Shown here one piece after another: positions 3,553-18,300 of a DNA stretch of 38,074 bases. A model generated the notes under the pieces. The model was not told the origin of the DNA and did not search any database. It saw only the letters and a program-made list of their open reading frames with translations. Position 1 is the stretch's first letter. Every line of letters begins with the position of its first letter. A program made the position numbers and the translations under genes. Origin of the DNA: Spirochaetae bacterium HGW-Spirochaetae-7 (lineage in GTDB: Bacteria > Spirochaetota > Spirochaetia > Treponematales > UBA12059); the NCBI GenBank assembly GCA_002839245.1, contig PGXR01000001.1, positions 4,284-42,357 of the forward strand, written 5' to 3'.

Positions 3553-4728
3553 CTACCAGCCGAAGCCGAGAAGCCACATGGGGATCATGCCCACGGCCGA
3601 GAAATCGGCACCGTCGCGGACGACGTGTCGTGCGCTCTTGCGTTTCTTGTGAAGGCCGCCGACTTCAACAGTGATGTCATTGTCAACGATGAAGTCGGCC
3701 GCGGTCTCGTCCCTTGAGGCATGGACCGAATGTCCGGCGTACTCCAATGCCGCTGCCACGAAGGCTTCCCTCATGTTTCCTTCCTTGCCCGACAGTGCTG
3801 GATACAGTGACGGATCCGCGAAGAAGATTTTTGCGCCTACAGACATGGCCGAGTGGTTCGTTGCGTACCTGATGATCCTGAGCAGCCCAGTCTGCTCCAT
3901 GGCGTGGAGCAGGGAATAGAGCTTCTCCTTTCCCAGATTCCATTCCCTGCACAGCGAGTTTACCTGGATGACCGGAATGTTTGACTGCGAGAGGTAGCCC
4001 AGGACGGCATTCATCAACCTGAAATGGTTCTGGGTGATATTCGGCACCAGAAACGGGATATCCGCTTCCATCGTTTTCTGGACCACCTGCAGGAGCTTCT
4101 GCGGATAGCTTTCCGTTCCCTCTGTGAAGAGCGGCTTGAAGCCGTATTCGAGGTATTCCTCGAACAATGACAGCACCGGGCATGTCCGTAGAATAGTTGC
4201 GACGATGGTTACATCATGATGCAATGGATCCTGAAGTCCGAAATCTCCTCGACCGCGAAGAACCAAATACTCCCTGAAAGACAGCGGAGGCATTGAAATC
4301 GAGACGAAGCGACGCGACAAGTCTGCTATTCCCTGTGACAGGAGCAGCGAGCTCGATCCGCTTGCCCATATCGTGCATGCCGGCCAGGCATCGTACAGGG
4401 CCTTGAGATCCCTGCTCCAATCGCGGGCCGCGTGGATCTCGTCCAGATAGACAACGGTGACTCCGCGCTGGAAAAGACGTTCGACCCACACATACAATGA
4501 CTGCACGGACAGGGCTGGATGATCCATGCTCAGGTATCTGGCTCCAGACCTTTCAGCGCTTCTCAGCAGGAAGGACGTCTTGCCGATACCACGGGGACCG
4601 TTGATGATGACTCCGCGATCGGCTATCGTCCGCTCGACTGCCCAGGGTCTGACCGGCGATTTCAGCGCATTGAAAAGCCGGGCTTGGACGAGAGCTGCTG
4701 AGTCGAGGATTCCATACTCATCGATCAT
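3553..4728 (-). CDS. AAA+ ATPase of the COG1373 type (AAA_14 N-terminal domain plus DUF4143-like C-terminal domain)
   Basis: 391 aa with Walker A GPRGIGKTS and Walker B-like VVYLDEIH. The C-terminal ...ADFIVDNDITVEVGG... resembles the D...E-x-K-like tail seen in this family. Family names are recalled, not searched. The gene is visibly less GC-rich than its neighbours. Confidence 0.75.
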   Translation of the reverse strand: MIDEYGILDSAALVQARLFNALKSPVRPWAVERTIADRGVIINGPRGIGKTSFLLRSAERSGARYLSMDHPALSVQSLYVWVERLFQRGVTVVYLDEIHAARDWSRDLKALYDAWPACTIWASGSSSLLLSQGIADLSRRFVSISMPPLSFREYLVLRGRGDFGLQDPLHHDVTIVATILRTCPVLSLFEEYLEYGFKPLFTEGTESYPQKLLQVVQKTMEADIPFLVPNITQNHFRLMNAVLGYLSQSNIPVIQVNSLCREWNLGKEKLYSLLHAMEQTGLLRIIRYATNHSAMSVGAKIFFADPSLYPALSGKEGNMREAFVAAALEYAGHSVHASRDETAADFIVDNDITVEVGGLHKKRKSARHVVRDGADFSAVGMIPMWLLGFGW

Positions 4729-4734
4729 GTATCG

Positions 4735-4763
4735 ATAGTATCACAGAACCGTAATGGCAACAA
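4735..4763 (-). promoter_or_regulatory. Putative sigma70-type promoter of the AAA ATPase gene with leaderless geometry
   Basis: On the minus strand: TTGTTG (4763-4758), 17 nt, TACTAT (4740-4735), 6 nt (cgatac), ATG (4728). No SD is present. Confidence 0.45.
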
Positions 4764-4777
4764 TCGGTTCTGTGATA
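4739..4777. repeat. Perfect 13-bp inverted repeat (TATCACAGAACCG-N13-CGGTTCTGTGATA), a candidate operator
   Basis: The arms at 4739-4751 and 4765-4777 pair at all 13 positions, checked base by base. They bracket the putative -35 hexamer and overlap the -10 of the AAA ATPase promoter. Confidence 0.8.
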
Positions 4778-4888
4778 GAACCGCTAGCGATATCCTGACC
4801 TTTGGATACAAGTAACCGTATCAGGGACTCGGCCATATCGCCTGGCCGCCGTCGAGCATGACGCCCAGCTCCCATTGTCTGTCCTGAA

Positions 4889-4924
4889 TTGACAATTTCT
4901 TCTTCCGTATGTACTGTAATTACA
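4889..4924 (+). promoter_or_regulatory. Putative mazEF promoter plus a 10-bp palindromic operator candidate
   Basis: TTGACA (4889-4894), 17 nt, TACTGT (4912-4917), 6 nt, ATG (4924). The palindrome TGTAATTACA (4915-4924) spans the -10 and the start codon. Confidence 0.5.
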
Positions 4925-5181
4925 TGAAAGCCCAGCTGGTCAAGATTGGAAACTCACGAGGTATCAGGCTTCCCCAGAAGTTGCTGACGTTGTACAGGAT
5001 CAATGAAGGGGATGAATTGGAACTCGAAGAGCGACGGGATGGTATTCTCCTCCGTCCCGGCCGGGCGGATTCCATGAAGCTGTCCTTCGAAGCCAGCTAT
5101 CGCGAGATGATCGCCGAACCGGCTGAACACGATGAATGGTCCGATTGGGATTCCGTTTCGGGAGACGGCTTGCATGCTTGA
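4924..5181 (+). CDS. mazE: MazE/AbrB-SpoVT-family antitoxin
   Basis: MKAQLVKIGNSRGIRLPQKLL... is the typical swapped-hairpin antitoxin N-terminus, followed by an acidic C-terminal tail. I prefer ATG 4924 over the track start 4909, which lies inside the promoter. The gene overlaps mazF by 8 nt (ATGCTTGA). Confidence 0.8.
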   Translation: MKAQLVKIGNSRGIRLPQKLLTLYRINEGDELELEERRDGILLRPGRADSMKLSFEASYREMIAEPAEHDEWSDWDSVSGDGLHA

Positions 5182-5509
5182 CCGCTATGGAGTGTACTGG
5201 GTCAACCTCGATTTTGTGGTCGGTACGGAAATCGCGAAAACACGACCGGCGGTGATCATCAGTGATGACGCCATGAATCGTGTTCTTGGAACCGTAGTCG
5301 TTTGTCCCGTCACCTCGCGAGTCCATCAGCGCTGGTCCAGCAGGGTGCAGACGAGCGTTGGCGGGCAGGTTTCCGAGATAGCCGTGGATCAAATCCGCAC
5401 GGTCGACAAATCCCGTATCGGCGCCAAGCTGGACCAGCTTGACGATATTGCCGCCGCTGCGATACGCCATATCGTAACCATGATGTACGGGATCCTGTCG
5501 GTGGAGTGA
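5174..5509 (+). CDS. mazF: MazF/PemK-family endoribonuclease toxin
   Basis: MLDRYGVYWVNLDFVVGTEIAKTRPAVIISDD...VVVCPVTS...AVDQIRTVDKSRIG is the PemK/MazF pattern. ATG at 5174 overlaps the mazE stop. Confidence 0.85.
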   Translation: MLDRYGVYWVNLDFVVGTEIAKTRPAVIISDDAMNRVLGTVVVCPVTSRVHQRWSSRVQTSVGGQVSEIAVDQIRTVDKSRIGAKLDQLDDIAAAAIRHIVTMMYGILSVE

Positions 5510-5658
5510 CGGGCCTTGCGTTGCCGCGAATCTCCCACGCTCCATGATGACGTTCAAGTTCGGAAAACTGCGGTCGGCTTCTTCCAAATTCCCTTTTCTC
5601 CTATATACTTGGCTTGACGTCTCGATGTTCTATGTTCATGCGCTCGGAGGGATTCCTG

Positions 5659-7977
5659 ATGTCCGAAAAAAGCCTCTTGCAGAAAGCCGCTCGATTCGCC
5701 AAGGCCGCCGGATCCGAGCTGTCCTCGGGTACCGACTTCGTCTTCGACAAGGATTCAGGCATTTCCAAGGAAGACCAGAAGGATATCCTCCTCCATATCG
5801 ATACGGTAGCCAAATCAAGCCGTATCGTCGCCGGCCCGGAAACATGGAAAGTGCGTCCGAAGAAGCGGGGCATCGCCCTGCCTCTCGTCGTCAATCTCGC
5901 AGGCGCGCTCGTCCTGGCAGGCGGCCTGTACGGACTCGGACTTGTTTTCGCGCCTTCCGAAGAAAGTTTCGAATCGAGTTCCGCCCAGCTGGCTTCGGCG
6001 GAAGGCCGCTTGCTCCAGGAAATAAAACGGGAAACCGAAGGCCGCATCCAGGAAAAGGACAAGGAAATAGCCGCCATCCAGCAAAGGATGGCTTCGCTCG
6101 ACAGCGAGCGCGATGAGCTGCTCTCGAGCGTCGACGCCAGGATCAAGGCCAAGGAAACAGAACTCAAGGACCAGCTCAAGCTCGAACTCGACAGGGAACG
6201 CCAGCGCCTCATCGACGAGGGGCTGTCCCAGACGGACGTCCAGGAGCGCATGCGCGAATTCGAAAAGCGCAAGACTGAAGAATTCAAGTCCCAGCTGGAT
6301 GGCTTCGCGAAGAAGGCCGAGGAGGAGAAGGCAGCGCTCCAGTCCAGGCTCGACAAGGCGCGCGACGAATACCGGACCAGCCTCTCCGCCGCCACCACGG
6401 AGCGCCAGCGCATCCAGGACGAGTCGCGGCAACGGGAGCAGGACCTTCGAGCCCAGCTCGACGACAAGAACAAGGCGCTTGAAGCCGAGCGGGCCCGCAC
6501 GGCGGACAGCCTGAAGGGCGCACAGGCCGAGCTGACGCGTTTCAACCAGGACGCGGCCAGGGTCAAGGCGGTCGAGGACAGGCTCGTGGGGCTGTACGCT
6601 TCCGCCAGGCAGTCGTTGCGGGACGGCAGGCTCGACGATGCCGCCGCGACGCTCGATTCCCTGCGCGCGTACCTGGCCGATCCCCAGGTTGCCGGGGTCC
6701 CCACCCTGCAGGCGAGGCGTGAGCTTGATCTGTTCGCGGTCGAGCTCATCGAGCGTTCCATCAATTCCGAACGGTCCAAGACATCCGCCGACACTTCCCG
6801 CGTCACGGCGGCCCTCGATGCCCTGGCCGTGGTTCGCAACGAGGTCGAGCGGGCCCGGGCCGCCATCGCCGCGGGGGATCCGGCCGCGGCGATGACGGCC
6901 TATCGCAGGGCGCTCTCGGCGACCAGCGAGCTCAAGGAAGCCGGCGCCTTCATCGAAGGAAACGGCAAAGCCATGCTCGACGCGAAGGTCGCCGAACTCG
7001 AGGCGGCGACGCTTGCCGCCCAGACGGCCGCCGTGGAGGCGAAGGTCGCGCTGGGCGCCGTGGAAGCCGCTGCGCGGGACGAAAAGGCACTCGAAGCGGC
7101 CTTCGTCCGCCTGTTGTCGAGCCTGCCGCTCGGCCCCGGAGACGCTTCCCGGGTCTATTCGTTCATCAAGACCGCCGGCGCGAGGGAGGCCGTCGCCGCC
7201 GGCAAGGCTTCCGATACAGCTTCCGCCGGCGTGCCGTTCAGGGCGGCGGCGGCGGACCTGTCGGCAGGCCGCTACTTCGAGGCGATACAGGGCTTCGCGA
7301 CCGTGCTTGCCAGGTACCCGGCCGCAGGCCAGGTACCCCGGGCGGTCGAGGGATTGCGCGATGCCGGCGGCGGACTCGTCGTCGCCCTCCAGGAAGCCAG
7401 GGACAAGGCCGCCGAGCGCATAGCCGAGCTGGAGTCGCGTCTCGCGGCAGCCCGCAACGAGGTCCCAGAGCCGATCCCCGGCACAGCCTCCGCGGCGGCC
7501 GGCGCCACCGCGACGACCGCTCCGGGCGCCGCCGGAAGCACCATCCCGACTGCCGAGCTTGTCGCCCTCCAGCAGGAGAAGTCCAGACTCGAGTCCGAGC
7601 TCGAGACTGCCAGGATGCGCTACGAGGCCGTCGCTTCCGCATACCGCGCCTATGGTGCCGACGAGGAAGCCATCCTTGCCCGGGGCGGCGACCTGGCACT
7701 GGTGGAAGCCAAGGCCAAGCTGGACGCGTTCCTGTCCAGCCCCGCCGTCTCATCCGCGATGCCGGGCATGCGGGACCGCATAGCCCGCTACCTTGCCGCC
7801 TTCCAGACAGCCGGCCAGAAGGAAGTGCTGTTCAACGCAGCCGACATAGTCGACGGGGCCGCCCGCATCCGTGACGCAGCGACCAGGGGCCGCTATTTCA
7901 GCGACCTGGAGAAGCGCAACGCCGGCAACCAGTCGATGCTCGAGTTCATTGATTCGGTGCGGCAGACCTTCAGGTAG
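5659..7977 (+). CDS. Bitopic membrane protein with a long coiled-coil and Ala-rich/TPR-like extracytoplasmic region, function unknown
   Basis: GGAGG (5646-5650) lies 8 nt before ATG 5659. There is one TM segment (IALPLVVNLAGALVLAGGLYGLGLVF), then about 250 aa of E/K/R/Q/L heptad-like sequence. Next come Ala-rich helices with a YbgF/CpoB-like motif (GRYFEAIQGFATVLARYPAAGQVPRAVEGL), a Pro/Ala/Thr linker and a second coiled coil. Confidence 0.7.
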   Translation: MSEKSLLQKAARFAKAAGSELSSGTDFVFDKDSGISKEDQKDILLHIDTVAKSSRIVAGPETWKVRPKKRGIALPLVVNLAGALVLAGGLYGLGLVFAPSEESFESSSAQLASAEGRLLQEIKRETEGRIQEKDKEIAAIQQRMASLDSERDELLSSVDARIKAKETELKDQLKLELDRERQRLIDEGLSQTDVQERMREFEKRKTEEFKSQLDGFAKKAEEEKAALQSRLDKARDEYRTSLSAATTERQRIQDESRQREQDLRAQLDDKNKALEAERARTADSLKGAQAELTRFNQDAARVKAVEDRLVGLYASARQSLRDGRLDDAAATLDSLRAYLADPQVAGVPTLQARRELDLFAVELIERSINSERSKTSADTSRVTAALDALAVVRNEVERARAAIAAGDPAAAMTAYRRALSATSELKEAGAFIEGNGKAMLDAKVAELEAATLAAQTAAVEAKVALGAVEAAARDEKALEAAFVRLLSSLPLGPGDASRVYSFIKTAGAREAVAAGKASDTASAGVPFRAAAADLSAGRYFEAIQGFATVLARYPAAGQVPRAVEGLRDAGGGLVVALQEARDKAAERIAELESRLAAARNEVPEPIPGTASAAAGATATTAPGAAGSTIPTAELVALQQEKSRLESELETARMRYEAVASAYRAYGADEEAILARGGDLALVEAKAKLDAFLSSPAVSSAMPGMRDRIARYLAAFQTAGQKEVLFNAADIVDGAARIRDAATRGRYFSDLEKRNAGNQSMLEFIDSVRQTFR

Positions 7978-7985
7978 GGACGCAA

Positions 7986-8015
7986 CCGGGCTGGACGGTC
8001 AGTCGTCCAGCCTGG
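7986..8015. terminator. GC-rich hairpin between convergent genes (no U-tract)
   Basis: Stem GGCTGGACG (7989-7997) pairs with CGTCCAGCC (8004-8012) across a 6-nt loop. The stem extends by G.U, C-G and C-G to 7986/8015. It overlaps the last codons and stop of the minus-strand lipoprotein gene. Confidence 0.4.
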
Positions 8016-9099
8016 CCAGATCCGCGGTTGGTATCTCGTAGACCTCTACCTGGAGGCTACCCTTGTCGTAATCGTTGTTGTTCCTGACGAAGAGGGTCCT
8101 CGTGAAGACTACCTTCATCTCAATGCCGTTCCATCGTTCGTGGACGAAACGCAATCTTCCCGCGGGGAACTTGAAAAGCCTGTTCAGCCCGGCGTCCAGC
8201 ACGCTGACGATGCCGTTGTCTTCTGCAAGCAGCCGTCCGTCGGACAGGGCGCCGATGAGCGGACCGAAGCTTTCCGGGTAGCGGGTTGGCTGGGCTGCCG
8301 TAAAAGGTGTATCCCATCTAAAAATGGCGTTTGATCCGTCAGACAAGCCGCACGAAAGGTAGAGATTGTTGGTTGACCCTGTGGTGTCGAGCAATTTGCC
8401 CGGAGTCGCAATTTGAGTGACATCCGAAAAAAGCAGAGTTGGTCCAGGTCCTATCACGAAGACTGGATCTCCTCCGGGCCATGGGTGTTTTTGCTGGTAA
8501 TTGGGGACCATTGCCTGGTAGGTTATACATGTCAACGTCGCGTTCAGGGATCCATTCACAGCAACGGCCCCGATCCCGAAATACCACATTGCATCGGTAT
8601 CAGGGAGAACGGTTGCAGAACTGGTGTTCGGGGCCGTCATTGGAAGGATTCGCCCTTCCGATGTACCTAACGTGACGAAGGCGTCGGAACTGCCGTCTGG
8701 ATCGGCATAAATCAGATAGGCGTCACCCATCGTATTTTCAATTTCAAAACCTGTCATAGTGTCAATCCACCCGGTATGATTCAGCGAATCGATCGACAAA
8801 ACCGGCTTGAACCCTATGCGCTCGTCCATGTCCTGGACAAGCAACCCGTTGGCGGGCAAGTCCACCATCGGCGGCAGGAACCACGCGTCGTCCATGCCGT
8901 GCTGCTGGACATCCTCGACGGAAAAGTACAGCGTCGGATCGCCAAGCTTTCTCACGGTGACTTCTGATGCCGAAATCATCGGGTCGAAGGTCGGGTGCCA
9001 GCACGACGATGCGAGCATCGCTATCAGGATAGCGCCCGAGGCAGCGACGCCAAGCATTTTGCCTGTGGCGCCGGGACGCCGGTTCCGGTTTGGTTTCAT
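7999..9099 (-). CDS. Lipoprotein, unknown family (module 2 lipoprotein, 'L2')
   Basis: I prefer the start at ATG 9099 (MKPNRNRRPGATGKMLGVAASGAILIAMLASSC...). It has a basic n-region, a hydrophobic core and a Cys lipobox, and it overlaps the upstream stop as ATGA (9096-9099). The 9100-9549 extension in the track overlaps the upstream gene. The protein is Asn/Thr/Ser/Asp/aromatic-rich and its gene is visibly less GC-rich. Confidence 0.7.
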   Translation of the reverse strand: MKPNRNRRPGATGKMLGVAASGAILIAMLASSCWHPTFDPMISASEVTVRKLGDPTLYFSVEDVQQHGMDDAWFLPPMVDLPANGLLVQDMDERIGFKPVLSIDSLNHTGWIDTMTGFEIENTMGDAYLIYADPDGSSDAFVTLGTSEGRILPMTAPNTSSATVLPDTDAMWYFGIGAVAVNGSLNATLTCITYQAMVPNYQQKHPWPGGDPVFVIGPGPTLLFSDVTQIATPGKLLDTTGSTNNLYLSCGLSDGSNAIFRWDTPFTAAQPTRYPESFGPLIGALSDGRLLAEDNGIVSVLDAGLNRLFKFPAGRLRFVHERWNGIEMKVVFTRTLFVRNNNDYDKGSLQVEVYEIPTADLARLDD

Positions 9100-10322
9100 A
9101 GCGAGAACCTCGCGCCGAGGCGCATCACGGGAAGCTCGAGGAACCACGTGTCGGCGCGAAGCGTCCACATGGGTCCACTGTCGCTGCTGCCACGGCTCGC
9201 GGCCATGAGGAAGCCATCGCAGAATGGGTAAAAAGCCGGGCCGAACTCGAAAAACACCGCTGCCCGCCCGCTGATGGCCCATTCGCCTCCCAGTGCAGCC
9301 ATAGTCCCCATCGGGGCCACCGGGTCGAACCTCGGGCTCAGGTCCTTGATGAACAGGAGCCGAGCGAAGGCGCCAAGGTTCCAGTACGGTCTGACATACG
9401 CGTCCCTGGGCAGGAGGTAGCCCCCGAAGCCAAGGCCCGGCTGGACGAGGGGCAGGGACAGCAGCACTGATGGAGTTTCGGTGCCGTATTCCTCGTCGAC
9501 CAGGTAGATGCCGGCAAGGAACTGTGTCAGGCCAATACGCAAGAACCACCGGTCATCTCCCAGGGAGCGTATTGCCCAGAAATCGGGGAACTGTCCCATG
9601 TACAGCCCCGCTTCCAGCGACCATGGCCGGATCGGTCGCCTGGGAATTGCCAGCGAGACGCCCTGCTCGAGCGCTCCGAAATAGCCGCGCTCCGGGTAGG
9701 CGCCTTTCGAGGTAGCCCGCCATGGATAGGTGCCAGGTACGCGGAGTGGTATCTCAAGGAAACCCGAATCGGGTATGACCAGTCCCCCCTCGGCAAGTCC
9801 GCCCCGGTCCTTGCCAGTCTGGCCGGTGATGACCGTTCCCGGGTGGCCTTCGATTCGCACGAGGGTCTTCCTCACTTTTGGAAGCGCTGCCTCGGCGGCG
9901 TCGGCCACCGCTATCCACCAGAACTCCGCAAGGTCGCGCGCTGTTGGCTCCCGGCCTTCGACGACGCCCTCGGCAAGTACCTCGCCGGTCAGCGGGTCGA
10001 GGATCCGCCATGCCGAGCGGGCGTCACCGCCAGGCAGAACCTCGCTCGTCACGTCGACTGCGAGCGCGCATGACGCCTTAGAGGCCGCTTCGACGATGTC
10101 CGCCCCGGCGGGCGCGATCAGGATGGCGTCGAGCTTCGAGGACCTGGCCAGCGCCGCGGCGAAAGCGACCTGGTCGGCCGCCCGTCCCGTACCGCTTGCG
10201 CGCGCCATCACCCGGATGCCCTCGTCGTCGGCGAAGGCCGCTTGCAGCGCGATCGCCGTCAGCAGGACGATGATGAAAAAGGCTTTGGGCAACGCCTGGC
10301 CGCGGGTTTTTAGCCGCATCAT
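9096..10322 (-). CDS. Secreted protein with a PEGA-like domain and a putative C-terminal outer-membrane beta-barrel (module 2, 'A2')
   Basis: Signal peptide MMRLKTRGQALPKAFFIIVLLTAIALQAAFADD. The start is ambiguous among 10319, 10322 and 10331; 10322 gives the ATGA overlap. A PEGA-like stretch (RIEGHPGTVITG...GGLAEGGLVI...ATSKGAYPERGYF) is followed by a C-terminal Gly/aromatic-rich region of alternating hydrophobicity that ends ...RLGARFSL. Confidence 0.65.
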   Translation of the reverse strand: MMRLKTRGQALPKAFFIIVLLTAIALQAAFADDEGIRVMARASGTGRAADQVAFAAALARSSKLDAILIAPAGADIVEAASKASCALAVDVTSEVLPGGDARSAWRILDPLTGEVLAEGVVEGREPTARDLAEFWWIAVADAAEAALPKVRKTLVRIEGHPGTVITGQTGKDRGGLAEGGLVIPDSGFLEIPLRVPGTYPWRATSKGAYPERGYFGALEQGVSLAIPRRPIRPWSLEAGLYMGQFPDFWAIRSLGDDRWFLRIGLTQFLAGIYLVDEEYGTETPSVLLSLPLVQPGLGFGGYLLPRDAYVRPYWNLGAFARLLFIKDLSPRFDPVAPMGTMAALGGEWAISGRAAVFFEFGPAFYPFCDGFLMAASRGSSDSGPMWTLRADTWFLELPVMRLGARFSL

Positions 10323-11338
10323 TTCCACCATGTCCTGAGCTTGTACAGCCGGCCGTCGACGCGGTCGTATATGAACCACCAGGTGCCGCTCGGGTCGAAC
10401 GAAAGGATTCTGACATCTTCCTCGTCGAAGGCCAGTGAGTCGATCTCCTGGGCGGGAGCGCCTGTCGTGAAATCCCCGGTACCCCATTTGTATCTCACGA
10501 GCCGGTTGACGCCCTTGTCGCCTCGGGAGTAAGCCACGGGGCCGCCATCGGTCAGCCATGCCAGGTCGTCCGCGACCGGGAAAGGGCCGGTCTTGATCGC
10601 AGCTGCAGAATCGAATACGGTACCGCCTGCCCAAAACAAAGCGGCCGATGCAAAAGTCGCCGTATAGCCCTGTCCGTTGCTGTGACGTCGCGAAAGCACG
10701 CTGTACCCATTAGCGAAGTCGGAGTCGAGGAGCGTAAAATTTCCGACCAGGGAATCAAAATCCCGAGTGACTGAAACGGTTGCGGCGCCCCATGCCGAGG
10801 GGTACTCTGCAAAAATTCCCTGCAATGATGAATTTGGGTCAACTACATAGTTCAATCCCGTCACAGGGTTCCCCACCCTGAACACGCGGACTGATGTGGC
10901 GTTTGTCCATATGGGTGATGCTGATGTGTTGCCTGGATTCAGAGGATCCACGATTTGTGTTCCGCAGAGGAACCCGTTCGATACCGAAGCGAGGGCGCGG
11001 GTAAAGCCTGCGCCGGTCGGTGTGAACTTGTACTCCATCGACTCCGGGCTGAGGAGTATTAATCGATTTGTGCTGTTCCCCGTCGCGTACACCAGTACCT
11101 TGGAGTAGTCCGTCCCCCCCGTGACGTACGGCGCGAACTCCAGGTTCTCGATTGTGGCGTCGCTTCCAAGTCCCTGCGCCACGGTGATGGCGCGGAAGTC
11201 GACGCTGGCTTCGACGTAGGACAGCCAGCGCGGGAAGACATCGGAGGTCAGGAAATCGCAAGTAGAGAACGTGGCGATGATGAAAAGAGCGGAGCTGGCG
11301 ACTGCTGCTCGCGCGAGCGGGTTTGTCATCCTTTTCAT
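10319..11338 (-). CDS. Lipoprotein, unknown family (module 1 lipoprotein, 'L1'), paralogue of 7999-9099
   Basis: ATG 11338 (MKRMTNPLARAAVASSALFIIATFSTC...) gives a relaxed lipobox and an ATGA overlap with the upstream stop (11335-11338). The tail ...GVNRLVRYKWGTGDF...SGTWWFIYDRVDGRLYKLRTWWK resembles GLNRLFKFPAG... in L2. The gene is less GC-rich than its flanking genes. Confidence 0.7.
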   Translation of the reverse strand: MKRMTNPLARAAVASSALFIIATFSTCDFLTSDVFPRWLSYVEASVDFRAITVAQGLGSDATIENLEFAPYVTGGTDYSKVLVYATGNSTNRLILLSPESMEYKFTPTGAGFTRALASVSNGFLCGTQIVDPLNPGNTSASPIWTNATSVRVFRVGNPVTGLNYVVDPNSSLQGIFAEYPSAWGAATVSVTRDFDSLVGNFTLLDSDFANGYSVLSRRHSNGQGYTATFASAALFWAGGTVFDSAAAIKTGPFPVADDLAWLTDGGPVAYSRGDKGVNRLVRYKWGTGDFTTGAPAQEIDSLAFDEEDVRILSFDPSGTWWFIYDRVDGRLYKLRTWWK

Positions 11339-12603
11339 GGCCATTTGAACATCACCCCTGCGCTCAGGCCCAAGGGCCCGTTTTCCGACTTCCACCACCC
11401 GCGGCGGAGGAGCCCCGAATCGGAGCCGAACGAATATGAGACGCGCTGTTCCAGGAACACGGCCCAGGCGGGCGTATGCCACTCGAACGAAAGCCACAGT
11501 GCGTCGAGCGACAGATCGAAATACAGGTTGGGTGTCGCATCTGCCGGCAGGATCCATGTCGCTATGCCCGACAGGCCGGAGCCGGCAGAGAAGCGGAAGC
11601 GGGAATAATGGGGAGTAAAGAGGTAGGCGCCGACGCCGAGCCGCAGTTCATCGTGGATGACCGGGACCGAGCCGGCGGTAAAGGCGTATTGCAGCCACAA
11701 CAAGTCGCGCGCACGGAGAAAAATCGAATCGGGCGCCAGATAATAGCGGTAATCCGCCGAAACGCCGGCGAGCCTCGCCGTTTCAACGCCGAACGATAGC
11801 GCTTGCCTCGTCATCGGCATCAGCGCCGGCAGCTTTATCGGCTCGTCGGCGCCTGTCGGGCTGAACACGGCGGTCCGCGGCCAATACCCGTCCTTCGACA
11901 TCGAGACGACGACCGGGTCGCCCTCCCTGAATGCGACGAAGGGGGCGACGAGGCTGCCGCCCTCGATCAGCCCGGCTTGCCGCGCGTCGTCCCCGGTACC
12001 GAAAGCCACCTGAGCCCCTTCGTCTCGCGAGCTGAAGCGAAGCCGGTACTCGATGGGCTTGCCCGGCTTCTTCCGTTCGCGGAGGGCGAGCGCGGCCGCA
12101 ACCGTTTCGGCCGCGCTCGCGTCAATCAGCGGCAGGGCGGTAAGGCCGGCGAAGGCCGCCTGCGACGACGCGGCCACCATGGACCCGTCGAGGAAATCGA
12201 AGACGATCGCGCTCCATACCAGGCGTCGCTGCTCGATGGTGCAACGGGCTATCGCGACCCACCGCGTACCGCTCGCCTTGCGGATTCCCCTGGCTACCTT
12301 GATATCCGTTGACGAGTCTTCCGTGGCCCCGTCGAAAAGTTCTACCGACCGGAAGCCCGCCGACTCAAAGTTCCTGACCAGGGCGGAAGCCAGGGCCTGG
12401 GCGAAAGTCGCCGCCTCGCTGTTGGATGCAATCATCGCGACCGAGACCGAGTCGCGCAACGCCGTCTGGGGCTCAGCTTCCGCTTCGACCCCGGCATCCT
12501 GCGCGGAGGCAGGAAAAGCCACGATCGTCGCCAGCAGGGCTAGCGCTACGACCCGCGCGGCGGAGAGTATTGGCTGGGCACGGAAAATCCGTTTCAGCTT
12601 CAT
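11335..12603 (-). CDS. Secreted protein with a PEGA-like domain and a putative C-terminal outer-membrane beta-barrel (module 1, 'A1'), paralogue of 9096-10322
   Basis: Signal peptide MKLKRIFRAQPILSAARVVALALLATIVAFPASAQD. PEGA-like stretch SSRDEGAQVAFG...AGLIEGGSLV...VVVSMSKDGYWPRTAVF. The C-terminal roughly 190 aa has alternating hydrophobic/aromatic strands and ends ...SAGVMFKWP. The ATG overlaps the cyclase stop as ATGA (12600-12603). Confidence 0.65.
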   Translation of the reverse strand: MKLKRIFRAQPILSAARVVALALLATIVAFPASAQDAGVEAEAEPQTALRDSVSVAMIASNSEAATFAQALASALVRNFESAGFRSVELFDGATEDSSTDIKVARGIRKASGTRWVAIARCTIEQRRLVWSAIVFDFLDGSMVAASSQAAFAGLTALPLIDASAAETVAAALALRERKKPGKPIEYRLRFSSRDEGAQVAFGTGDDARQAGLIEGGSLVAPFVAFREGDPVVVSMSKDGYWPRTAVFSPTGADEPIKLPALMPMTRQALSFGVETARLAGVSADYRYYLAPDSIFLRARDLLWLQYAFTAGSVPVIHDELRLGVGAYLFTPHYSRFRFSAGSGLSGIATWILPADATPNLYFDLSLDALWLSFEWHTPAWAVFLEQRVSYSFGSDSGLLRRGWWKSENGPLGLSAGVMFKWP

Positions 12604-14276
12604 TTCTCGTGCATGACCTCGACGCCGTCCCAGTCGTCGGGCGGAGGGTCGATAGCGTAGCGGTCGCAGCGCGCGGACATCGACGTGGACGCGTAGTCGT
12701 CCCGGCCGAGCGTCGCCGTCACGGACCGGAACAGGTCGCGCGCCTCGTGGAAGCGCTTGGCTCCGTACTTCGCCATTGCCTCTTCGTGCATGGCCCAGGC
12801 GGCCGACTGCTCAGGGGGCAGCGTACGCCGTGCCGTATAGATGCGCACGCCCTTGGTCTTGCCCTTGACCGCGACCGTGTCCAGGAGGCGGCACGGGAAG
12901 CTGCCTTCGACGAGGTCGTGGATGGATTCCGAGAATATCAGGGGCTGGCGGTACAGTTTGGTCAGCCCTTCGAGCCTCGAGGCCAGGTTCACGGTGTCGC
13001 CGATGACGGTGTAGTCCATCTTCTTGTCGCAACCGATGTTGCCTACGGTCACCTTTCCGTAGTTTATGCCGATGCCGATCCTGAAGTCGGGCTTGCCGAG
13101 TTCTCGCTGCCTCTCGTTGAAGCGGTCCAGAGCCTCGGTCATCTCCATCGCCGCCAGCACCGAAGAGGCCGCGTCGTCGTCGTGCTTCACCGGAGCGCCG
13201 AAGAAGGCCATGATGGCGTCGCCTATGTACTTGTCGATTATGCCGTGGCGATTCATGATGATGTCGACCATCGATCCGAAGTAGCGGTTGAGCGAGTTGA
13301 CCAGGTCGTCGGGCTCCATCGACTCCGATATGGTGGTGAACGAGCGTATGTCGGAGAAGAGCACCGCCAGTTCGCGGTTCTCGCCGACCAGCATCGCCTC
13401 CGGGTTCTGGAAGAACTGGTCTATCAGTTCCTGCGGCACGAATTTCTGGAAGATGTGCCTGATCTTCTCTTCCTTCTTCTGCGCCAGGACTGTCTCGAAG
13501 GCGTATTTTTTTATCTGCTCGTATGCCTTCTGCAATTCGCCCAGCATGATGTTGAAGGTGTGCGACATCGTGCCTATCTCGTCGGGGAACTGCACCTCGA
13601 CCCGCTCCGACATGTCACCGGAGTCGATGATGCGGCGCATCGCCGTCACCATCGAAGACAGCGGACCGGTCATGTACCTGACGAAGAGCAGCACGAGGAT
13701 AGTCGCGATTATGATTGAGCCGATAAGGATGCCGAAGGTGCTCCTGGTAAGCGCTTCTACGTCGCCGAAGAAGGTGCCCCGCTCCTCGGTGACCAGGACA
13801 TACCAGCCGAACGGCCCGAAGGGGAAGCCGGACGCGACCCGCTCGACGCCGCCCAGGACGAGCGGCTGGAAACCCCTGGCGCCGGCCGCGAACAGCGCCG
13901 CGAGAGCGGCCGTCTCGTCGGGTCGTACCTCTATCGCGGAGGTCCGGGAGGTGATGGCTCCGTCCTTCCCGACGGCCAGTATCAGCTCGGTGTCGCTCCT
14001 GATGATCGACCTGGCGAACGACTCCACGCCGGCCTGCGCCGCGGCGACCATGTCGGGCCGGTCGGCCACCTCGTTCTCCACGAGGAGGTTCCACTGGCTC
14101 TCGGCGTACTTCTCCAGCTCGGAGACCTTGAAGTCGAGGAATTCGGTCGCTATCCGCGTTACGGCCCGCGTCGCGACTATCTGGCTTGTCATTCCGGCCA
14201 GGATTATGGCGACGACGAGTATCGGCAGGATGACCAAGACTATCTTCCAACGTATGCTCACATGTGAACTATACAC
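12600..14276 (-). CDS. Membrane sensor adenylate cyclase (TM, periplasmic domain, TM, HAMP, class III cyclase domain)
   Basis: Cyclase blocks ELAVLFSDIRSFTTISE, DKYIGDAIMAFFGAP and DYTVIGDTVNLASRLEG. The Lys (KYIGD) and Thr (YTVIG) at the base-specifying positions fit bacterial adenylate cyclases. Two TM segments flank about 150 periplasmic residues, and a HAMP-like linker precedes the catalytic domain. The track start is GTG 14276; GTG 14261 is an alternative (see the promoter feature). Confidence 0.85.
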   Translation of the reverse strand: MYSSHVSIRWKIVLVILPILVVAIILAGMTSQIVATRAVTRIATEFLDFKVSELEKYAESQWNLLVENEVADRPDMVAAAQAGVESFARSIIRSDTELILAVGKDGAITSRTSAIEVRPDETAALAALFAAGARGFQPLVLGGVERVASGFPFGPFGWYVLVTEERGTFFGDVEALTRSTFGILIGSIIIATILVLLFVRYMTGPLSSMVTAMRRIIDSGDMSERVEVQFPDEIGTMSHTFNIMLGELQKAYEQIKKYAFETVLAQKKEEKIRHIFQKFVPQELIDQFFQNPEAMLVGENRELAVLFSDIRSFTTISESMEPDDLVNSLNRYFGSMVDIIMNRHGIIDKYIGDAIMAFFGAPVKHDDDAASSVLAAMEMTEALDRFNERQRELGKPDFRIGIGINYGKVTVGNIGCDKKMDYTVIGDTVNLASRLEGLTKLYRQPLIFSESIHDLVEGSFPCRLLDTVAVKGKTKGVRIYTARRTLPPEQSAAWAMHEEAMAKYGAKRFHEARDLFRSVTATLGRDDYASTSMSARCDRYAIDPPPDDWDGVEVMHEK

Positions 14277-14295
14277 GATCGTCGGCCCAGATCAA
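14268..14295 (-). promoter_or_regulatory. Putative promoter of the cyclase/envelope operon
   Basis: On the minus strand: TTGATC (14295-14290), 16 nt, TATAGT (14273-14268), 6 nt (tcacat), GTG (14261). No SD precedes either candidate GTG. Confidence 0.45.
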
Positions 14296-14319
14296 GGGGC
14301 AGGAGCGATTTCGTCCTTC

Positions 14320-14348
14320 TTGACATGCCGCCAGGGCCGCTATACTTA
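14320..14348 (+). promoter_or_regulatory. Putative promoter of the LolA-like/ABC operon
   Basis: TTGACA (14320-14325) is followed by TATACT (14341-14346, 15-nt spacer) or TACTTA (14343-14348, 17-nt spacer). A purine-rich SD (GGAGAGAGAGG) lies just before ATG 14408. Confidence 0.5.
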
Positions 14349-14407
14349 AGATCCGCCTGTGCCCACCTTGAGCGCCTGGTCGATGGCGGGAAAAGGAGAG
14401 AGAGGAA

Positions 14408-15178
14408 ATGAGCATTCGCATAGTCGCAGCGTTCTGCGGATCGGCCGCTTTCGCGCTTCTCGCGGTACCGGCTGCGCATGCTGAAGGTCCGGACGCCCGC
14501 GAGATGATGCGCCTGGCCGATGAGGCGATGTATCCGCCCAGCTTCAGCATGACCGCGACCATCACCACCGAGCGCCCGGGCCGCGCCGACTCGACCATGA
14601 CGATCGAGATTTTCCACAAGGCGGATGTCGGCACGTTCATGGAAGTATCCGCTCCCGCCAGGATGAAGGGGACGAGGTTCCTCCAGACCGACGATGCGCT
14701 GTACATGTACAGCCCCAGGGCCGGCTCGCGCAGTTCGCTGCGCCTGTCCCCGAGGGAATCCTTCCAGGGGAGCGTATTCTCGAACAACGACGTCGGAGAT
14801 TCGACGTGGGCCAACGACTACGAGCCGGCTATCGAGGGCTCGAAAACGATCGATCACCCGGAATTCGGGCGTGTCGAGGTCTGGCTCGTTTCCGGAACCG
14901 CGCTCCGCCGTGACGTGCCGTACGGCTCGATACGCATCTACCTCTCGAAAGACAGGGTCCTGCCGCTCCGGATGGAGTATTTCGCGAAGAGCGGACTTCT
15001 CCTCAAGACTATGGAGCTGTCAGGCTACGCAAACTCGTCGGGACGGCTCCGGCCGACGCGCCTGGCGATGACGGACGAGAACGGCACGGGAGAGCGGAGC
15101 GTCGTCGTCATCGGCGACCTTCGCGTGCGCACCGACCTGCCCGACGCCATGTTCAACCAGGCCTGGCTGACGCGATGA
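14408..15178 (+). CDS. Outer-membrane lipoprotein-sorting (LolA-like) family protein, secreted
   Basis: Signal peptide MSIRIVAAFCGSAAFALLAVPAAHAEG. The body (...FSMTATITTERPGRADSTMTIEIFHK...MKGTRFLQTDDALYMYSPRAGS...FQGSVFSNNDVGD...) matches my memory of the LolA_like family that accompanies FtsX-type ABC systems. Confidence 0.75.
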   Translation: MSIRIVAAFCGSAAFALLAVPAAHAEGPDAREMMRLADEAMYPPSFSMTATITTERPGRADSTMTIEIFHKADVGTFMEVSAPARMKGTRFLQTDDALYMYSPRAGSRSSLRLSPRESFQGSVFSNNDVGDSTWANDYEPAIEGSKTIDHPEFGRVEVWLVSGTALRRDVPYGSIRIYLSKDRVLPLRMEYFAKSGLLLKTMELSGYANSSGRLRPTRLAMTDENGTGERSVVVIGDLRVRTDLPDAMFNQAWLTR

Positions 15179-16353
15179 AGCCAGCCGGTCTCCTGAGGAT
15201 CTGCTGCTTCCTCACCGTTGGCGCCGCCGGTACCATGGTCCCGGCAGGCGCACAATCCGGCGGCGCGCTCTCGCTGGACGCGTCGGGCAGCGTCTCGACG
15301 GTCGTCGAGCTGGCCTATCCCCGGTCGGCGGACGGAAGCTTCGGAGATCCGGCGGTCGGCGCGGCGTTCGAGTCGGAGCTCTTCCTCTCGGGCACCGGAC
15401 CGTTGGCCCTGTTCCGCATTCGGGCGCTGGCATCCGCCTCGGCGGACGATCCTTCCGGATACGAACCCGCAAATCTCGCGAACGCTGTCCGCCTCGAACT
15501 CCGGGAGGCGGAGATAACGCTCCTGCCCCTGCCCGGGCTGTCCGTCCGCGCGGGTATGCTGCTCCGCAGCCTCGGCTTCGGTTCGTACGGCTCTCCGGCG
15601 GACCCCTTGGCGCGCCTCCCCGACCAGGGCGGCTTCTGGGGAGCATCCGTGGAATGGGCCCCGGTCCAGGGATTCTCGGCCGTCGCGCTGGCGTCGGCGG
15701 ACAGGGCGGCGAGAGACGCCTCTTTCGCCGGAGTCGATGACCTCGACGCGGGGGCTGTCGTCCGGTTCTCGGCAGGAGCACTGGATGCGGGGCTCGGTAC
15801 TTACTATTCGGGGTATGGAAGCGGGGAGGCTAGACCGGTCGCCTATGTCTCCTGTCCGGCATTCGGATTCCTGGGCTCGCTGGAGGCCGCGCTGTCCATT
15901 CCGCTGGGCGGCGCCGACGCGGAGCCGTCCGGGTCGTTGAGGATGGAACTGCGCCGCGGGCTTGCCGTCGGCGACCTGTCGTTCGAATTGGCCGCCGCGT
16001 ACCGCGGCGTGTTCCCCGGGAGAAGCCAGGCCGAACTCGATTCGATGATCGCGGCCCTGGGCGGCGGCCTGCCCGGTGACCCGTTCGCGCCGTATTACGG
16101 GCGGCATTACGCGGAATTCTCCGCCTATGTCGAAAGCGCGGACCTGTTCTTGTTTTCTGCCAACCTCGCGCTCTCCCTGCTGGATGGTAGCATGATGCTC
16201 GAAACGAAGGCAGAGCTCTACAGCGGCGACGCGGGCCTCTTCGTCAGGGCCGCCCTCGTGCCGGGGAAAGAGGACGGAGAATTCCGGGCCATAGCGCGGG
16301 CAGCCGGTTCAAGCGAGCTGGTCATAGGCGCGGGCCTGAGCTTTTCGTTCTGA
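15175..16353 (+). CDS. Putative outer-membrane beta-barrel protein, unknown family
   Basis: ATGA overlap with the preceding gene (15175-15178). Signal peptide MKPAGLLRICCFLTVGAAGTMVPAGAQS. The composition is Gly/Ala/Ser/aromatic-rich, and the C-terminal ...VIGAGLSFSF ends in Phe, as BAM substrates typically do. Confidence 0.6.
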   Translation: MKPAGLLRICCFLTVGAAGTMVPAGAQSGGALSLDASGSVSTVVELAYPRSADGSFGDPAVGAAFESELFLSGTGPLALFRIRALASASADDPSGYEPANLANAVRLELREAEITLLPLPGLSVRAGMLLRSLGFGSYGSPADPLARLPDQGGFWGASVEWAPVQGFSAVALASADRAARDASFAGVDDLDAGAVVRFSAGALDAGLGTYYSGYGSGEARPVAYVSCPAFGFLGSLEAALSIPLGGADAEPSGSLRMELRRGLAVGDLSFELAAAYRGVFPGRSQAELDSMIAALGGGLPGDPFAPYYGRHYAEFSAYVESADLFLFSANLALSLLDGSMMLETKAELYSGDAGLFVRAALVPGKEDGEFRAIARAAGSSELVIGAGLSFSF

Positions 16354-16405
16354 GCGCAGGCCCGGGCCGGCCGGCGGCCTTATAATTCGCAAGAAGGAGC
16401 TACCT

Positions 16406-17089
16406 ATGGCTTTGATCGATATGCGCGACATCGAAAAAGATTATTCGCTCGGCCGGACCACGATTCGGGCGCTCAGGAACGTCAGCCTTTCGGTCGAAGC
16501 CGGCGAGTTCACGGCCATCGTCGGCCCTTCCGGCTGCGGCAAGACGACGATGCTCAACCTCCTGGGGTGCATCGACAGGCCCACGTCGGGAAGCATCAGC
16601 TTTGACGGCGTTCCGACCACGGGCCTCGGGGACGACGCCGAGGCGGACCTCCGGCTCGCGAAGATAGGCTTCATATTCCAGAGCTTCAACCTCGTGCCGG
16701 TCCTGACGATCGCGGAGAACATCGAGGTTCCCCTCATGCTCGCCGGGCGTCCGAAGCGTGAACGGCGTGTCCGCGTCGAGGAGCTCATGGAGCTCGTGGG
16801 GCTCGCGAGCTACGCCCGCCACAAACCGGACGAACTGTCCGGGGGGCAGCGACAGCGGGTGGCCATTGCGCGCGCCCTGGCCAACGAGCCGAGGCTCGTG
16901 ATCGCCGACGAGCCGACGGCCAACCTCGACGGCGCTACCGGAGAGAGCGTGCTCGAGGCGATGAAGGAGCTGAACGAGAAGAACGGCATTACCTTCCTTT
17001 TCTCGACGCACGATCCCCGCGTCATGCGCTACGCCCGCCGCATCGTCAGGCTGCGCGACGGAGAAATCGAGGGCGAGGAGGCCTCCTGA
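16406..17089 (+). CDS. ABC transporter ATP-binding protein, LolD/MacB-type
   Basis: Walker A GPSGCGKTT, signature LSGGQRQRVAIARAL, Walker B LVIADEPT. AAGGAG (16392-16397) precedes the ATG. Confidence 0.92.
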   Translation: MALIDMRDIEKDYSLGRTTIRALRNVSLSVEAGEFTAIVGPSGCGKTTMLNLLGCIDRPTSGSISFDGVPTTGLGDDAEADLRLAKIGFIFQSFNLVPVLTIAENIEVPLMLAGRPKRERRVRVEELMELVGLASYARHKPDELSGGQRQRVAIARALANEPRLVIADEPTANLDGATGESVLEAMKELNEKNGITFLFSTHDPRVMRYARRIVRLRDGEIEGEEAS

Positions 17090-18294
17090 TGCTGCTCAAG
17101 ATGGCCATCCTGTCGATGCTCAAGCGCCCAAAGCGTACCATCCTGATAGTGCTGGCCGTCGCGCTCTCGGTGTTCGTCATGGAATTCGTGTCGGGCTGGA
17201 TAGAGGGCATGCGGGACAGGATGAACAGGCAGATCGTCGAGGAGAGCGCTCACATCCTCGTAGAACGAACGGAGCGCGTCGAATCCCTCGATCCGCTGGA
17301 GACGAAGGACTATATCGCCGATCCGGGCTCCGTCGCCGAGCGGCTCTCGGCCGACGCCCGCGTTCGCCGCGTCGAGCGCGTCACGCCCTTCGGCGCACTC
17401 GTGCTCGCCGGCAGCAAGAGCCTGCCGATGAGGATGGTCGGCGTGGAGCGGGATACCGGTTTCTTCGCCCAGGTTCCCCGGGGCCGGCTCGAAGGCTCGT
17501 TCCCGCCATCGGGACCCGGCATCGCGATATCGCGGAAAGCGCTCGACCTGCTTGGCGCTTCTTACTCCGCCAGGCTGATCGTGCTCGTCGAGGACGCGTA
17601 CGGGATGCCGTCGTACCGGGAATTGCCGGTGACCTGCGTCTTTGCGACCGATTCCACCGACTTCGACACGTCGACGGCCTTCATCGACGCCGGGACCGCG
17701 TCTGAAATCCTCGGTACCGGGTACAGCGCCGAGCTGTGGCTCCGCCTCGGAAATCCCGAGGATGCGGAAGCCGTCCGCGATTCCGCGCTCGCGTTCCTGG
17801 CCGGCCGCGACTGCGTCGCCAGGACCTGGAAGGACCTCCAGGGCGGATTGCTGGTGATGATACGCTACATGGACCTCTTCATGCTCGTCATCAACGTCTT
17901 CGTCCTGATAGTGGCCGCGACCGTCATCACCAACGCGATACTGATGAACGTATTCGAGAAGCAGAAGGAATACGGAACGCTACGGGCGATAGGCATGAAA
18001 CGACGCGATCAGGCATTCCTCGTGCTCGCCGAAGGAGCGGCGCAAGGCCTCGCGGGAGCGGCGCTCGGCGCCGTGCTGGCCTTGCCCGTCGTACTTTTCC
18101 TCAAGGCGAACGGCCTTCCCATCGGCGAGGCGAGCCGGATGCTCGGCGGTGGCGACGTCATGTATTTCGGAACGAATCCTTTTTCGACGCTGCAGAACAT
18201 CGGTTTCGGGACGCTCATCGCCGTCGCGGGGAGCCTCTATGCCGCCGTCTTCGGGACACGGGCCACGGTCGTCGACGCGCTCAAGAACGTCTAG
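17089..18294 (+). CDS. ABC transporter permease, FtsX/MacB/LolC-E family
   Basis: N-terminal TM, a large periplasmic domain, and a C-terminal FtsX-like three-TM bundle (...EKQKEYGTLRAIGMKRRD...). The start overlaps the ATPase stop by 1 nt (TGATG). Confidence 0.85.
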   Translation: MLLKMAILSMLKRPKRTILIVLAVALSVFVMEFVSGWIEGMRDRMNRQIVEESAHILVERTERVESLDPLETKDYIADPGSVAERLSADARVRRVERVTPFGALVLAGSKSLPMRMVGVERDTGFFAQVPRGRLEGSFPPSGPGIAISRKALDLLGASYSARLIVLVEDAYGMPSYRELPVTCVFATDSTDFDTSTAFIDAGTASEILGTGYSAELWLRLGNPEDAEAVRDSALAFLAGRDCVARTWKDLQGGLLVMIRYMDLFMLVINVFVLIVAATVITNAILMNVFEKQKEYGTLRAIGMKRRDQAFLVLAEGAAQGLAGAALGAVLALPVVLFLKANGLPIGEASRMLGGGDVMYFGTNPFSTLQNIGFGTLIAVAGSLYAAVFGTRATVVDALKNV

Positions 18295-18300
18295 GAGGAC

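Follow-up and report, generated by a model that had tools for sequence, protein, structure and literature searches.

In the genome assembly of Spirochaetae bacterium HGW-Spirochaetae-7 (GCA_002839245.1), five minus-strand open reading frames (ORFs), which follow one another without intergenic bases from position 14276 down to 7999, and a convergent gene designated cc787 were found to make up a gene cassette shared by over 20 distinct loci in spirochaetes. All positions given herein are those of the window, that is, the whole stretch of 38,074 nucleotides (nt) analysed (contig PGXR01000001.1, positions 4,284 to 42,357 of the forward strand). The cassette encodes a HAMP-containing class III adenylate cyclase, two predicted outer-membrane (OM) barrel proteins, two predicted lipoproteins and a membrane protein with a long coiled coil. 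We see about an even chance that these products constitute a spirochaete-specific trans-envelope complex, the state of which gates cyclic AMP (cAMP) synthesis via the HAMP domain; the contacts, the direction of signalling and the stimulus are what we infer in this reading.

Organization and conservation of the cassette

The five contiguous minus-strand ORFs comprise gene 1 (12600-14276), encoding the sensor adenylate cyclase of 558 amino acids (aa), or 553 aa if read from the GTG at 14261; gene 2 (11335-12603), encoding a predicted secreted OM protein of 422 aa, the architecture of which was derived with AlphaFold2 (AF2) and Foldseek; gene 3 (10319-11338), encoding a predicted propeller lipoprotein of 339 aa, as judged from its lipobox and AF2 model; gene 4 (9096-10322), encoding a further predicted secreted OM protein of 408 aa, which hhalign indicated to be a remote paralogue of gene 2; and gene 5 (7999-9099), encoding a predicted lipoprotein of 366 aa with the lipobox SC33WHPTFDP. 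On the plus strand, cc787 (5614-7977) encodes a 787-aa bitopic membrane protein with a coiled coil, and its stop codon is separated from that of gene 5 by 21 bp. The products of genes 2-5 each possess a single N-terminal hydrophobic signal segment and no other hydrophobic segment. No Pfam or NCBIfam family and no PDB sequence matched the window proteins of genes 2-5 and cc787, in agreement with an earlier note on this DNA, which had recognized no characterized family for genes 2-5. Likewise, a family assignment was not found in Pfam or NCBIfam for the versions of the cassette proteins from Salinispira and from the loci L024 and L049 of our comparison.

The coding strand reads ATGA at all four junctions of the five ORFs (12600-12603, 11335-11338, 10319-10322 and 9096-9099), so that both the ORFs and the junctions described in the earlier note were confirmed. 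The same holds for the further ATGA overlaps reported within the window at 656, 2206 and 15175, at which the ends and starts of the ORFs agree, and given these, coupling of this style is by itself ordinary in this genome. It is rather the conservation of the junction overlaps across loci that goes beyond chance: overlaps of 4, 7 or 10 nt were observed at nearly every junction in about 25 orthologous loci examined, and they persisted where the identity of the orthologous proteins drops to 30-50%. In particular, the stop/start overlap between the cyclase gene and gene 2 was retained in 16 of the 18 loci in which the cyclase gene comes first. In the region scanned for promoters, 6 sites were found where 1.5 would be expected, a consensus-level result that is indecisive on internal promoters, and terminators were not enriched in the scan (9 found, 7.4 expected).

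All taxa named in the records of the gene 2 family were spirochaetes, including the cultured Salinispira pacifica, the genome of which (CP006939) carries the complete cassette near L21SP2_0436, at 476-484 kb. An orthologous cyclase gene was located directly upstream of gene 2 in 18 distinct loci having at least four different outer flanks, and the flanks seen in these cyclase-first loci included an asparaginase gene, a Band_7 pair, a PadR gene with a LolA-like ABC operon, a PAS response regulator gene, and, in Salinispira, glycosyltransferase and TPR genes. All 12 loci of sufficient length showed the order cyclase-gene 2-gene 3-gene 4-gene 5 accompanied by a convergent cc787 homologue of 711-891 aa. 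A distant subfamily, reached via locus L019 and a metagenome scan, retained the order of genes 2 to 5 together with the convergent cc787. In locus L024, a full-length orthologous cyclase gene (hidden Markov model (HMM) E 1.7e-210) was found upstream of cc787 on the opposite strand, and this relocation next to cc787 indicates that the linkage survives rearrangement. The earlier note had proposed a survey of gene neighbourhoods for recurrent cyclase linkage, and the outcome favoured it: wherever a locus contained all four module genes and was long enough for the cyclase gene to be seen, that gene was there. Nevertheless, the unit had been described as a cyclase heading a four-gene module, and in this respect the description had to be revised. 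The unit is a six-gene set that includes cc787, a gene beyond the coordinates considered in the earlier note, and neither the head position of the cyclase nor its translational coupling is universal, as it stands upstream of cc787 in L024 and is missing in L049.

The last-mentioned locus, on a Treponema-like contig, carries gene 2-like, gene 4-like and cc787-like genes and lacks the lipoprotein genes, and no cyclase gene was found within 10 kb. This minimal form suggests that the two barrels and the coiled-coil protein are the core, to which the lipoproteins and the cyclase were added.

Two further genes were noted in these loci. In L024, positions 7755-10000 (minus strand) hold two tandem cyclase genes upstream of cc787, the second of which runs off the contig end. 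In the distant subfamily, a 636-643-aa protein without a Pfam match (MHPQDLLPLLRAFALKT...) is encoded divergently from the gene 2-like gene in at least 13 loci, among them L025 (7994-9904, minus strand), L019, L024, L033, L035, L036 and L040; the gene is absent from the window and from close relatives of the window.

The adenylate cyclase and its periplasmic domain

The product of gene 1 displays two transmembrane segments (aa 12-30 and 181-199) around a periplasmic domain, the latter being the predicted sensor domain of 150 aa (aa 31-180; 13737-14186, minus strand), followed by a HAMP domain (aa 197-249), a class III catalytic domain (aa 301-475) and a conserved C-terminal extension (aa 476-558). 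The earlier note had read this layout from the sequence, and it was borne out by the transmembrane segments and by Pfam matches well above the gathering cut-offs, both for HAMP (E 1.6e-11, 44.7 bits; cut-off 25) and for Guanylate_cyc (PF00211; E 3.8e-26, 92.3 bits; cut-off 21.9). Two transmembrane segments enclosing an extracytoplasmic domain, with HAMP right after the second, are the arrangement of a HAMP-linked transmembrane receptor. The best sequence matches in the PDB were adenylate cyclases, namely Slr1991 (2w01), CyaB (3r5g), photoactivated cyclases and Spirulina CyaC (1wc0).

Residues D309, K349, D353, T423, N430 and R434 were all present, inside motifs conserved in 18 orthologues, and the complete residue set of a class III cyclase (two metal Asp, Lys plus Thr, Asn and Arg) was thereby accounted for. 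From the roles known for class III cyclases and the alignment with 2w01, we take D309 and D353 to bind metal, K349 to select adenine, and N430 and R434 to serve in the transition state; a Thr at the position of T423 is a class IIIb signature. As judged from these residues, gene 1 is a class III adenylate cyclase gene of IIIb-like type, and since the catalytic residues lie within motifs conserved in the 18 orthologues, the enzyme is probably active.

The periplasmic domain gave no Pfam match at E<=10, either as a single sequence or when the 11 members of alignment A8 were searched one by one, and its profile matched no PDB sequence. This lack of a match to a ligand-binding family was counted in favour of the trans-envelope complex. 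Moreover, the identity of the domain to its orthologues (42-82%) resembles that of the catalytic domain (56-86%), and such conservation fits a conserved protein partner. A Cache-like sensor domain, suspected by eye, gained no supporting match and is not claimed here.

The start of gene 1 is ambiguous between the GTG at 14276 (558 aa) and that at 14261 (553 aa, MSIRWK...). It may be the latter, because sequence conservation and most gene calls of the orthologues begin there. Upstream, the intergenic region 14277-14407 between the cyclase gene and the divergent LolA-like gene is likely the operon promoter region and contains promoter-like hexamers. The minus-strand pair TTGATC-16-TATAGT at 14295-14268 is a consensus match only; it overlaps 14276, and a start at 14261 would then be nearly leaderless.

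Barrel proteins encoded by genes 2 and 4

The earlier note had divided the product of gene 2 into three parts behind a signal peptide, and this architecture was reproduced by the AF2 model (predicted local distance difference test score (pLDDT) 81.2, 22-sequence alignment) and Foldseek. A signal peptide with cleavage between ASA and Q35 precedes an alpha/beta domain (aa 50-173), a beta-sandwich (aa ~183-262) and a barrel (aa 267-421) that was modelled with eight long strands. The C-terminal part matched the OmpA transmembrane domain, OprF-N, NspA, OmpX and Ail in Foldseek, with TMt values of 0.79, 0.69 and 0.63 for 1qjp, 4rlc and 1bxw, respectively, and the terminal Trp of the C-terminal ...KW is conserved family-wide. 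According to the model, gene 2 thus encodes an OmpA-like eight-stranded barrel, while neither gene 2 nor gene 4 nor their homologues had an OmpA_membrane or OmpA_C match in Pfam. The four eight-stranded barrels described in Treponema pallidum are single-domain proteins (PMC8407342), and the described repertoire of treponemal OM proteins therefore does not include the fusion predicted for genes 2 and 4.

The N-terminal domain found TolB-N, PelC, LpoB and FlgT in Foldseek, with E values of 1e-4 to 7e-4 for the PelC/LpoB/FlgT type (7e-4 for LpoB, 4q6l). With the sandwich included, it superposed on PelC (TMt 0.48-0.55) and on FlgT (3w1e; 8z5n, LPHT ring). For both genes 2 and 4, the resemblance to PelC, LpoB, FlgT and FlgO is a fold likeness only: a lipobox Cys is lacking in both, their signals are of the signal-peptidase-I type, and FlgO of Pfam matched only below threshold, in 2 of 40 members of the gene 2 family (E 0.0046). 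TolB membership of gene 2 was rejected, as only the N-terminal domain superposes and the full-length TM score is about 0.23; TolB_N and PD40 of Pfam did not match, and the cassette contains no tolQR or pal genes. As for the PEGA-like beta-sandwich proposed in the earlier note, a small beta-sandwich does appear in the model, whereas PEGA (PF08308) did not match gene 2 at E<=1 and stayed below threshold in the 4 family members, out of 40, in which it appeared (best E 0.0085). The sub-threshold values for FlgO and PEGA are in line with the Foldseek result.

The relation of gene 2 to gene 4 escaped BLASTP and was marginal with shallow profiles (hhalign E ~0.015). With deep profiles, in contrast, hhalign aligned 269 colinear columns (gene 2 100-389, gene 4 72-363) at a probability of 98.7% and E 4e-16, compared with E 0.03-0.8 in negative controls, and the homologue in L049 matched both HMMs (gene 4, 3.6e-58; gene 2, 2.4e-18). 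Taken together, the deep-profile alignment and the double match argue that genes 2 and 4 are ancient remote paralogues, and gene 4 would by homology share the architecture of gene 2, barrel included; the gene 4 profile matched no PDB sequence. The gene 2 family comprises 27 close members, all unnamed, and 264 clusters at 50% identity were obtained when 1.84 billion cluster representatives were searched with a profile.

Two observations may be added on these proteins. Each N-terminal domain has a Cys that is invariant among close orthologues (gene 2 Cys121, 12238-12243; gene 4 Cys85, 10068-10070). By eye, the two lie in corresponding strands, and they are not conserved in the wider gene 2 family; an intermolecular disulfide is conceivable. 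In addition, L038 contains a more distant gene 2-like gene (8136-11239, plus strand) with the other cassette genes not nearby. It directly follows a gene for a BamB-like (PQQ_2) beta-propeller, which makes another barrel/propeller adjacency.

Lipoproteins encoded by genes 3 and 5

Genes 3 and 5 are predicted from their conserved lipobox Cys to encode lipoproteins, as the earlier note had proposed. The lipobox of gene 3 is FSTC27, with the Cys conserved to at least 90% in 39 sequences, and that of gene 5 is ASSC33, which is invariant in 7 sequences and kept in the distant subfamily. The AF2 model of gene 3 (pLDDT 90.9, predicted TM score (pTM) 0.85) folds 23 strands into a beta-propeller of about six blades, for which Foldseek returned generic propellers only (Pizza6, neuraminidase and WD40). 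The protein has a conserved C-terminal motif, RTWWK, and its 44 homologues are all unnamed. A BamB-type propeller was considered and rejected for gene 3, as there was no Pfam match, the blades number about six and not eight, and BamB stood outside the top 50 Foldseek matches.

The gene 5 versions of the two subfamilies are orthologues (hhalign 98.4%, E 6e-15), and the gene 5 profile matched no PDB sequence. Between genes 3 and 5, BLASTP found no similarity, and hhalign with subfamily-specific profiles remained non-significant (E 0.003-0.015), for which reason a shared type of the two was rejected. Consequently, the two alternating protein types proposed in the earlier note stand for the barrel proteins, which are paralogous, and not for the lipoproteins, which are separate from each other. 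Among orthologues, the lipoproteins were the fastest-evolving products (26-75% identity) and the cyclase the slowest (60-92%), a pattern expected for a variable input and a conserved output.

With respect to these genes, it was also observed that the gene 5 region has a GC content of 0.55, with 0.61-0.66 in its neighbours, and that in the closest relative, an uncultured Treponemataceae metagenome-assembled genome (L009, 2146-3160), the gene 3 orthologue is split over two frames, owing to a frameshift, to decay into a pseudogene or to faulty assembly.

The coiled-coil protein cc787

The product of cc787 consists of a short conserved N-terminal segment, one transmembrane segment (aa 87-105) preceded by KVRPKKRG, and a remaining part of about 680 aa, in which a charged coiled coil is followed by Ala-rich helical sequence. 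Its profile matched no PDB sequence, and Pfam and NCBIfam gave generic coiled-coil noise only. All loci of sufficient length, L024, L048 and L049 among them, had a homologue of cc787, which followed gene 5 or, in L049, the homologue of gene 4. The protein is most likely the sixth component of the cassette.

Proposed mechanism and alternative explanations

In the proposed trans-envelope complex, the products of genes 2 and 4 would be anchored in the OM by their OmpA-like barrels and project the PelC/LpoB/TolB-N-like domain and the beta-sandwich into the periplasm. The lipoproteins of genes 3 and 5, each encoded right after one of the barrel genes, would probably pair with that barrel, and cc787 would provide an inner-membrane (IM) anchor with a very long periplasmic coiled coil. 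The HAMP/class III cyclase, supposedly dimeric, would contact the OM/IM assembly, and not a small ligand in free form, through its own conserved periplasmic domain. Any change in this assembly would then be passed through the second transmembrane segment and HAMP to the catalytic domain and thereby alter cAMP synthesis, the candidate changes being the occupancy of the fast-evolving lipoproteins, the OM-IM spacing and envelope damage. The overlapping stop and start codons may maintain the co-expression of the components. In another spirochaete, cAMP is reported to control motility (PMC9043183). The earlier note had put forward, as a working hypothesis, a complex whose ligand or assembly state is read out as cAMP, and this hypothesis stays plausible.

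Several points weigh against this mechanism. All the evidence for coupling is genomic, and the cassette encodes no cAMP receptor. The insertion of the gene 2 and gene 4 products into the OM and the location of the lipoproteins, at the surface or in the periplasm, are predictions, and the long part of cc787 is assigned to the periplasm by the positive-inside rule only. Finally, L049 possesses the barrel/coiled-coil core without an adjacent cyclase or lipoproteins, so that signalling may have been added to a structure that has its own function.

The same locus, with its gene 2-, gene 4- and cc787-like genes and neither cyclase nor lipoproteins, lends itself to the explanation that the module is a structural envelope scaffold or an OM-IM/peptidoglycan tether, that is, a functional analogue, in spirochaetes, of Tol-Pal or OmpA/Lpp. 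The cyclase would then be a passenger sensing an unrelated periplasmic small molecule, linked because cAMP regulates, or is co-regulated with, the structure. We regard this as a possible, tentative alternative. It draws on the parallel between cc787 and TolA, between the TolB-N-like domains of genes 2 and 4 and TolB, and between the propeller of about six blades in gene 3 and that of TolB, which has six, as well as on PelC and FlgT, relatives of the N-terminal domain that build OM-associated rings. What such a scaffold explains less well is that the same cyclase orthologue, periplasmic domain included, follows the module through rearrangement and occurs in every four-gene locus extending far enough, and that its overlap with gene 2 is retained in 16 of the 18 cyclase-first loci. 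Nor would a small-molecule sensor lead one to expect a periplasmic domain that is by sequence unlike known ligand-binding folds and yet unusually conserved.

A more specific form of the trans-envelope complex would be a mechanosensor, in which the OM barrels, the lipoproteins and a coiled-coil "ruler" clamp the periplasmic domain of the cyclase, and the OM-IM distance, the movement of the periplasmic flagellum or the load on the OM is converted into cAMP. Such a device would be specific to spirochaetes and not recognized before, and none of its structural parts has a homologue known to be characterized; we think this form unlikely. Also doubtful is a surface receptor or a device for uptake, secretion or adhesion, the cyclase of which would report substrate availability. 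Such a role would accommodate the fast divergence of the lipoproteins, which resembles that of surface-exposed proteins, the frequent use of beta-propellers in ligand binding, and the place of PelC-like domains in polysaccharide export. However, the barrels match eight-stranded anchors of the OmpA, OmpX, NspA and Ail type, which have no substrate channel, and no ATPase, glycosyltransferase, TonB/ExbBD or secretin gene was conserved in the cassette among the loci compared. That the genes are functionally uncoupled and their order is merely synteny inherited among close relatives is very improbable: even though all loci are from one phylum and some flanks (the P-type ATPase and OmpA-family genes) are loosely syntenic as well, the block stays while its flanks vary (asparaginase, Band_7 pair, PadR/LolA-ABC, and glycosyltransferase/TPR in Salinispira), the junction overlaps are retained at protein identities down to about 30%, and where the gene order is rearranged all six genes are still adjacent.

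Comparison with known envelope systems

A close parallel in logic is the YfiB/YfiR/YfiN system, in which an OM-anchored protein controls, across the periplasm, an IM HAMP nucleotide cyclase of the same operon and which serves as an envelope-stress sensor (PMC3375315). The cassette resembles YfiBNR (TpbB; Pseudomonas, E. coli) in combining predicted OM-anchored partners with an IM HAMP cyclase in one operon. It differs in its output, which would be cAMP from a class III cyclase instead of cyclic di-GMP from the GGDEF domain of YfiN, in lacking a YfiR-like soluble repressor and a Pal/OmpA_C lipoprotein, and in having two barrels, two unrelated lipoproteins and the coiled-coil protein. Sequence similarity is limited to the generic HAMP domain, and the cassette is accordingly not a member of that system. 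With Tol-Pal, the cassette shares an IM-anchored long-helix protein, a TolB-N-like domain, OM anchoring and a roughly six-bladed propeller, all as predicted. In the cassette, however, the TolB-N-like domain is joined to an OM barrel, a lipoprotein of its own forms the propeller, a TolQ/TolR motor and Pal are both missing, and TolB, TolA and Pal of Pfam did not match.

OM-anchored proteins that control IM enzymes or sensors across the periplasm are also represented by LpoB-PBP1B and RcsF, the latter working as a lipoprotein/OM-barrel pair. The likeness lies in OM-anchored proteins reporting to the IM, and the LpoB fold matches the N-terminal domain of gene 2. In contrast, the products of genes 2 and 4 are predicted to be barrel-anchored and not lipidated, the partner is a cyclase and not a penicillin-binding protein (PBP) or a phosphorelay, and sequence homology is absent. 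PelC and the Vibrio flagellar H-ring proteins FlgT and FlgO form OM-associated periplasmic rings, and the N-terminal domain of gene 2, with the sandwich, superposes on PelC and FlgT; still, the cassette has no linked Pel or flagellar genes and no lipobox on gene 2, and those families are not characterized by a fused eight-stranded barrel. In Pseudomonas aeruginosa, surface sensing through Pil-Chp and CyaB reads the state of an envelope-spanning apparatus as cAMP, CyaB (3r5g) being one of the proteins of solved structure most closely related to the catalytic domain. Unlike the cyclase described here, CyaB has a MASE2 membrane domain and a chemotaxis-like pathway, not a periplasmic domain with OM partners encoded in the same operon. 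On this comparison, the cassette appears to resemble YfiBNR, Rcs and LpoB in logic and to be homologous to none of them. No description of it was found in the literature searched; OM partners coupled to an IM nucleotide cyclase are a known principle, and the cassette is built from five unannotated families.

Genomic neighbourhood in the window

Between asnS and cc787, the window contains an AAA_14 ATPase gene (3553-4728, minus strand) and a 195-aa ORF without a Pfam match (5000-5587, minus strand), in a region (3553-5587) where the GC content dips to 0.53-0.57. This region looks like an insertion, because in L003 asnS comes immediately after the coiled-coil gene.

On the other side, a divergent operon (14408-19539, plus strand) starts with the gene for a LolA_like (TP_0789-like) protein, continues with that for a 392-aa secreted protein without a Pfam match, overlapping as ATGA at 15175, and also encodes a MacB-type ABC transporter of one ATPase and two FtsX permeases. 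This LolA-like/ABC operon adjoins the cassette in L003 too and not in the other loci. A P-type ATPase gene (19567-21459, minus strand) and a gene for an OmpA_C-domain protein (21925-23178, minus strand) recur near the cassette in L001, L005, L021 and L023, there together with an ArsR-type regulator gene and often a PAS response regulator gene, and thus form a loose extended synteny.

Significance for spirochaete envelope biology

The spirochaete envelope has no Lpp tether, encloses the flagella in the periplasm and is bounded by a fragile OM, and to our knowledge almost nothing is known about how its condition is monitored. We likewise know of few bacterial class III adenylate cyclases with a known input. 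The cassette represents a defined candidate input apparatus for such a membrane cyclase. It also defines five unannotated protein families, one of which, with at least 264 clusters, is predicted to join a PelC/LpoB-like domain to a beta-sandwich and an eight-stranded barrel in an undescribed fusion. As the cultured Salinispira pacifica, for which a complete genome is available, carries the cassette, experimental work is feasible. If the coupling of the OM to the cyclase holds true, the principle of YfiBNR, Rcs and Lpo would extend to cAMP signalling.

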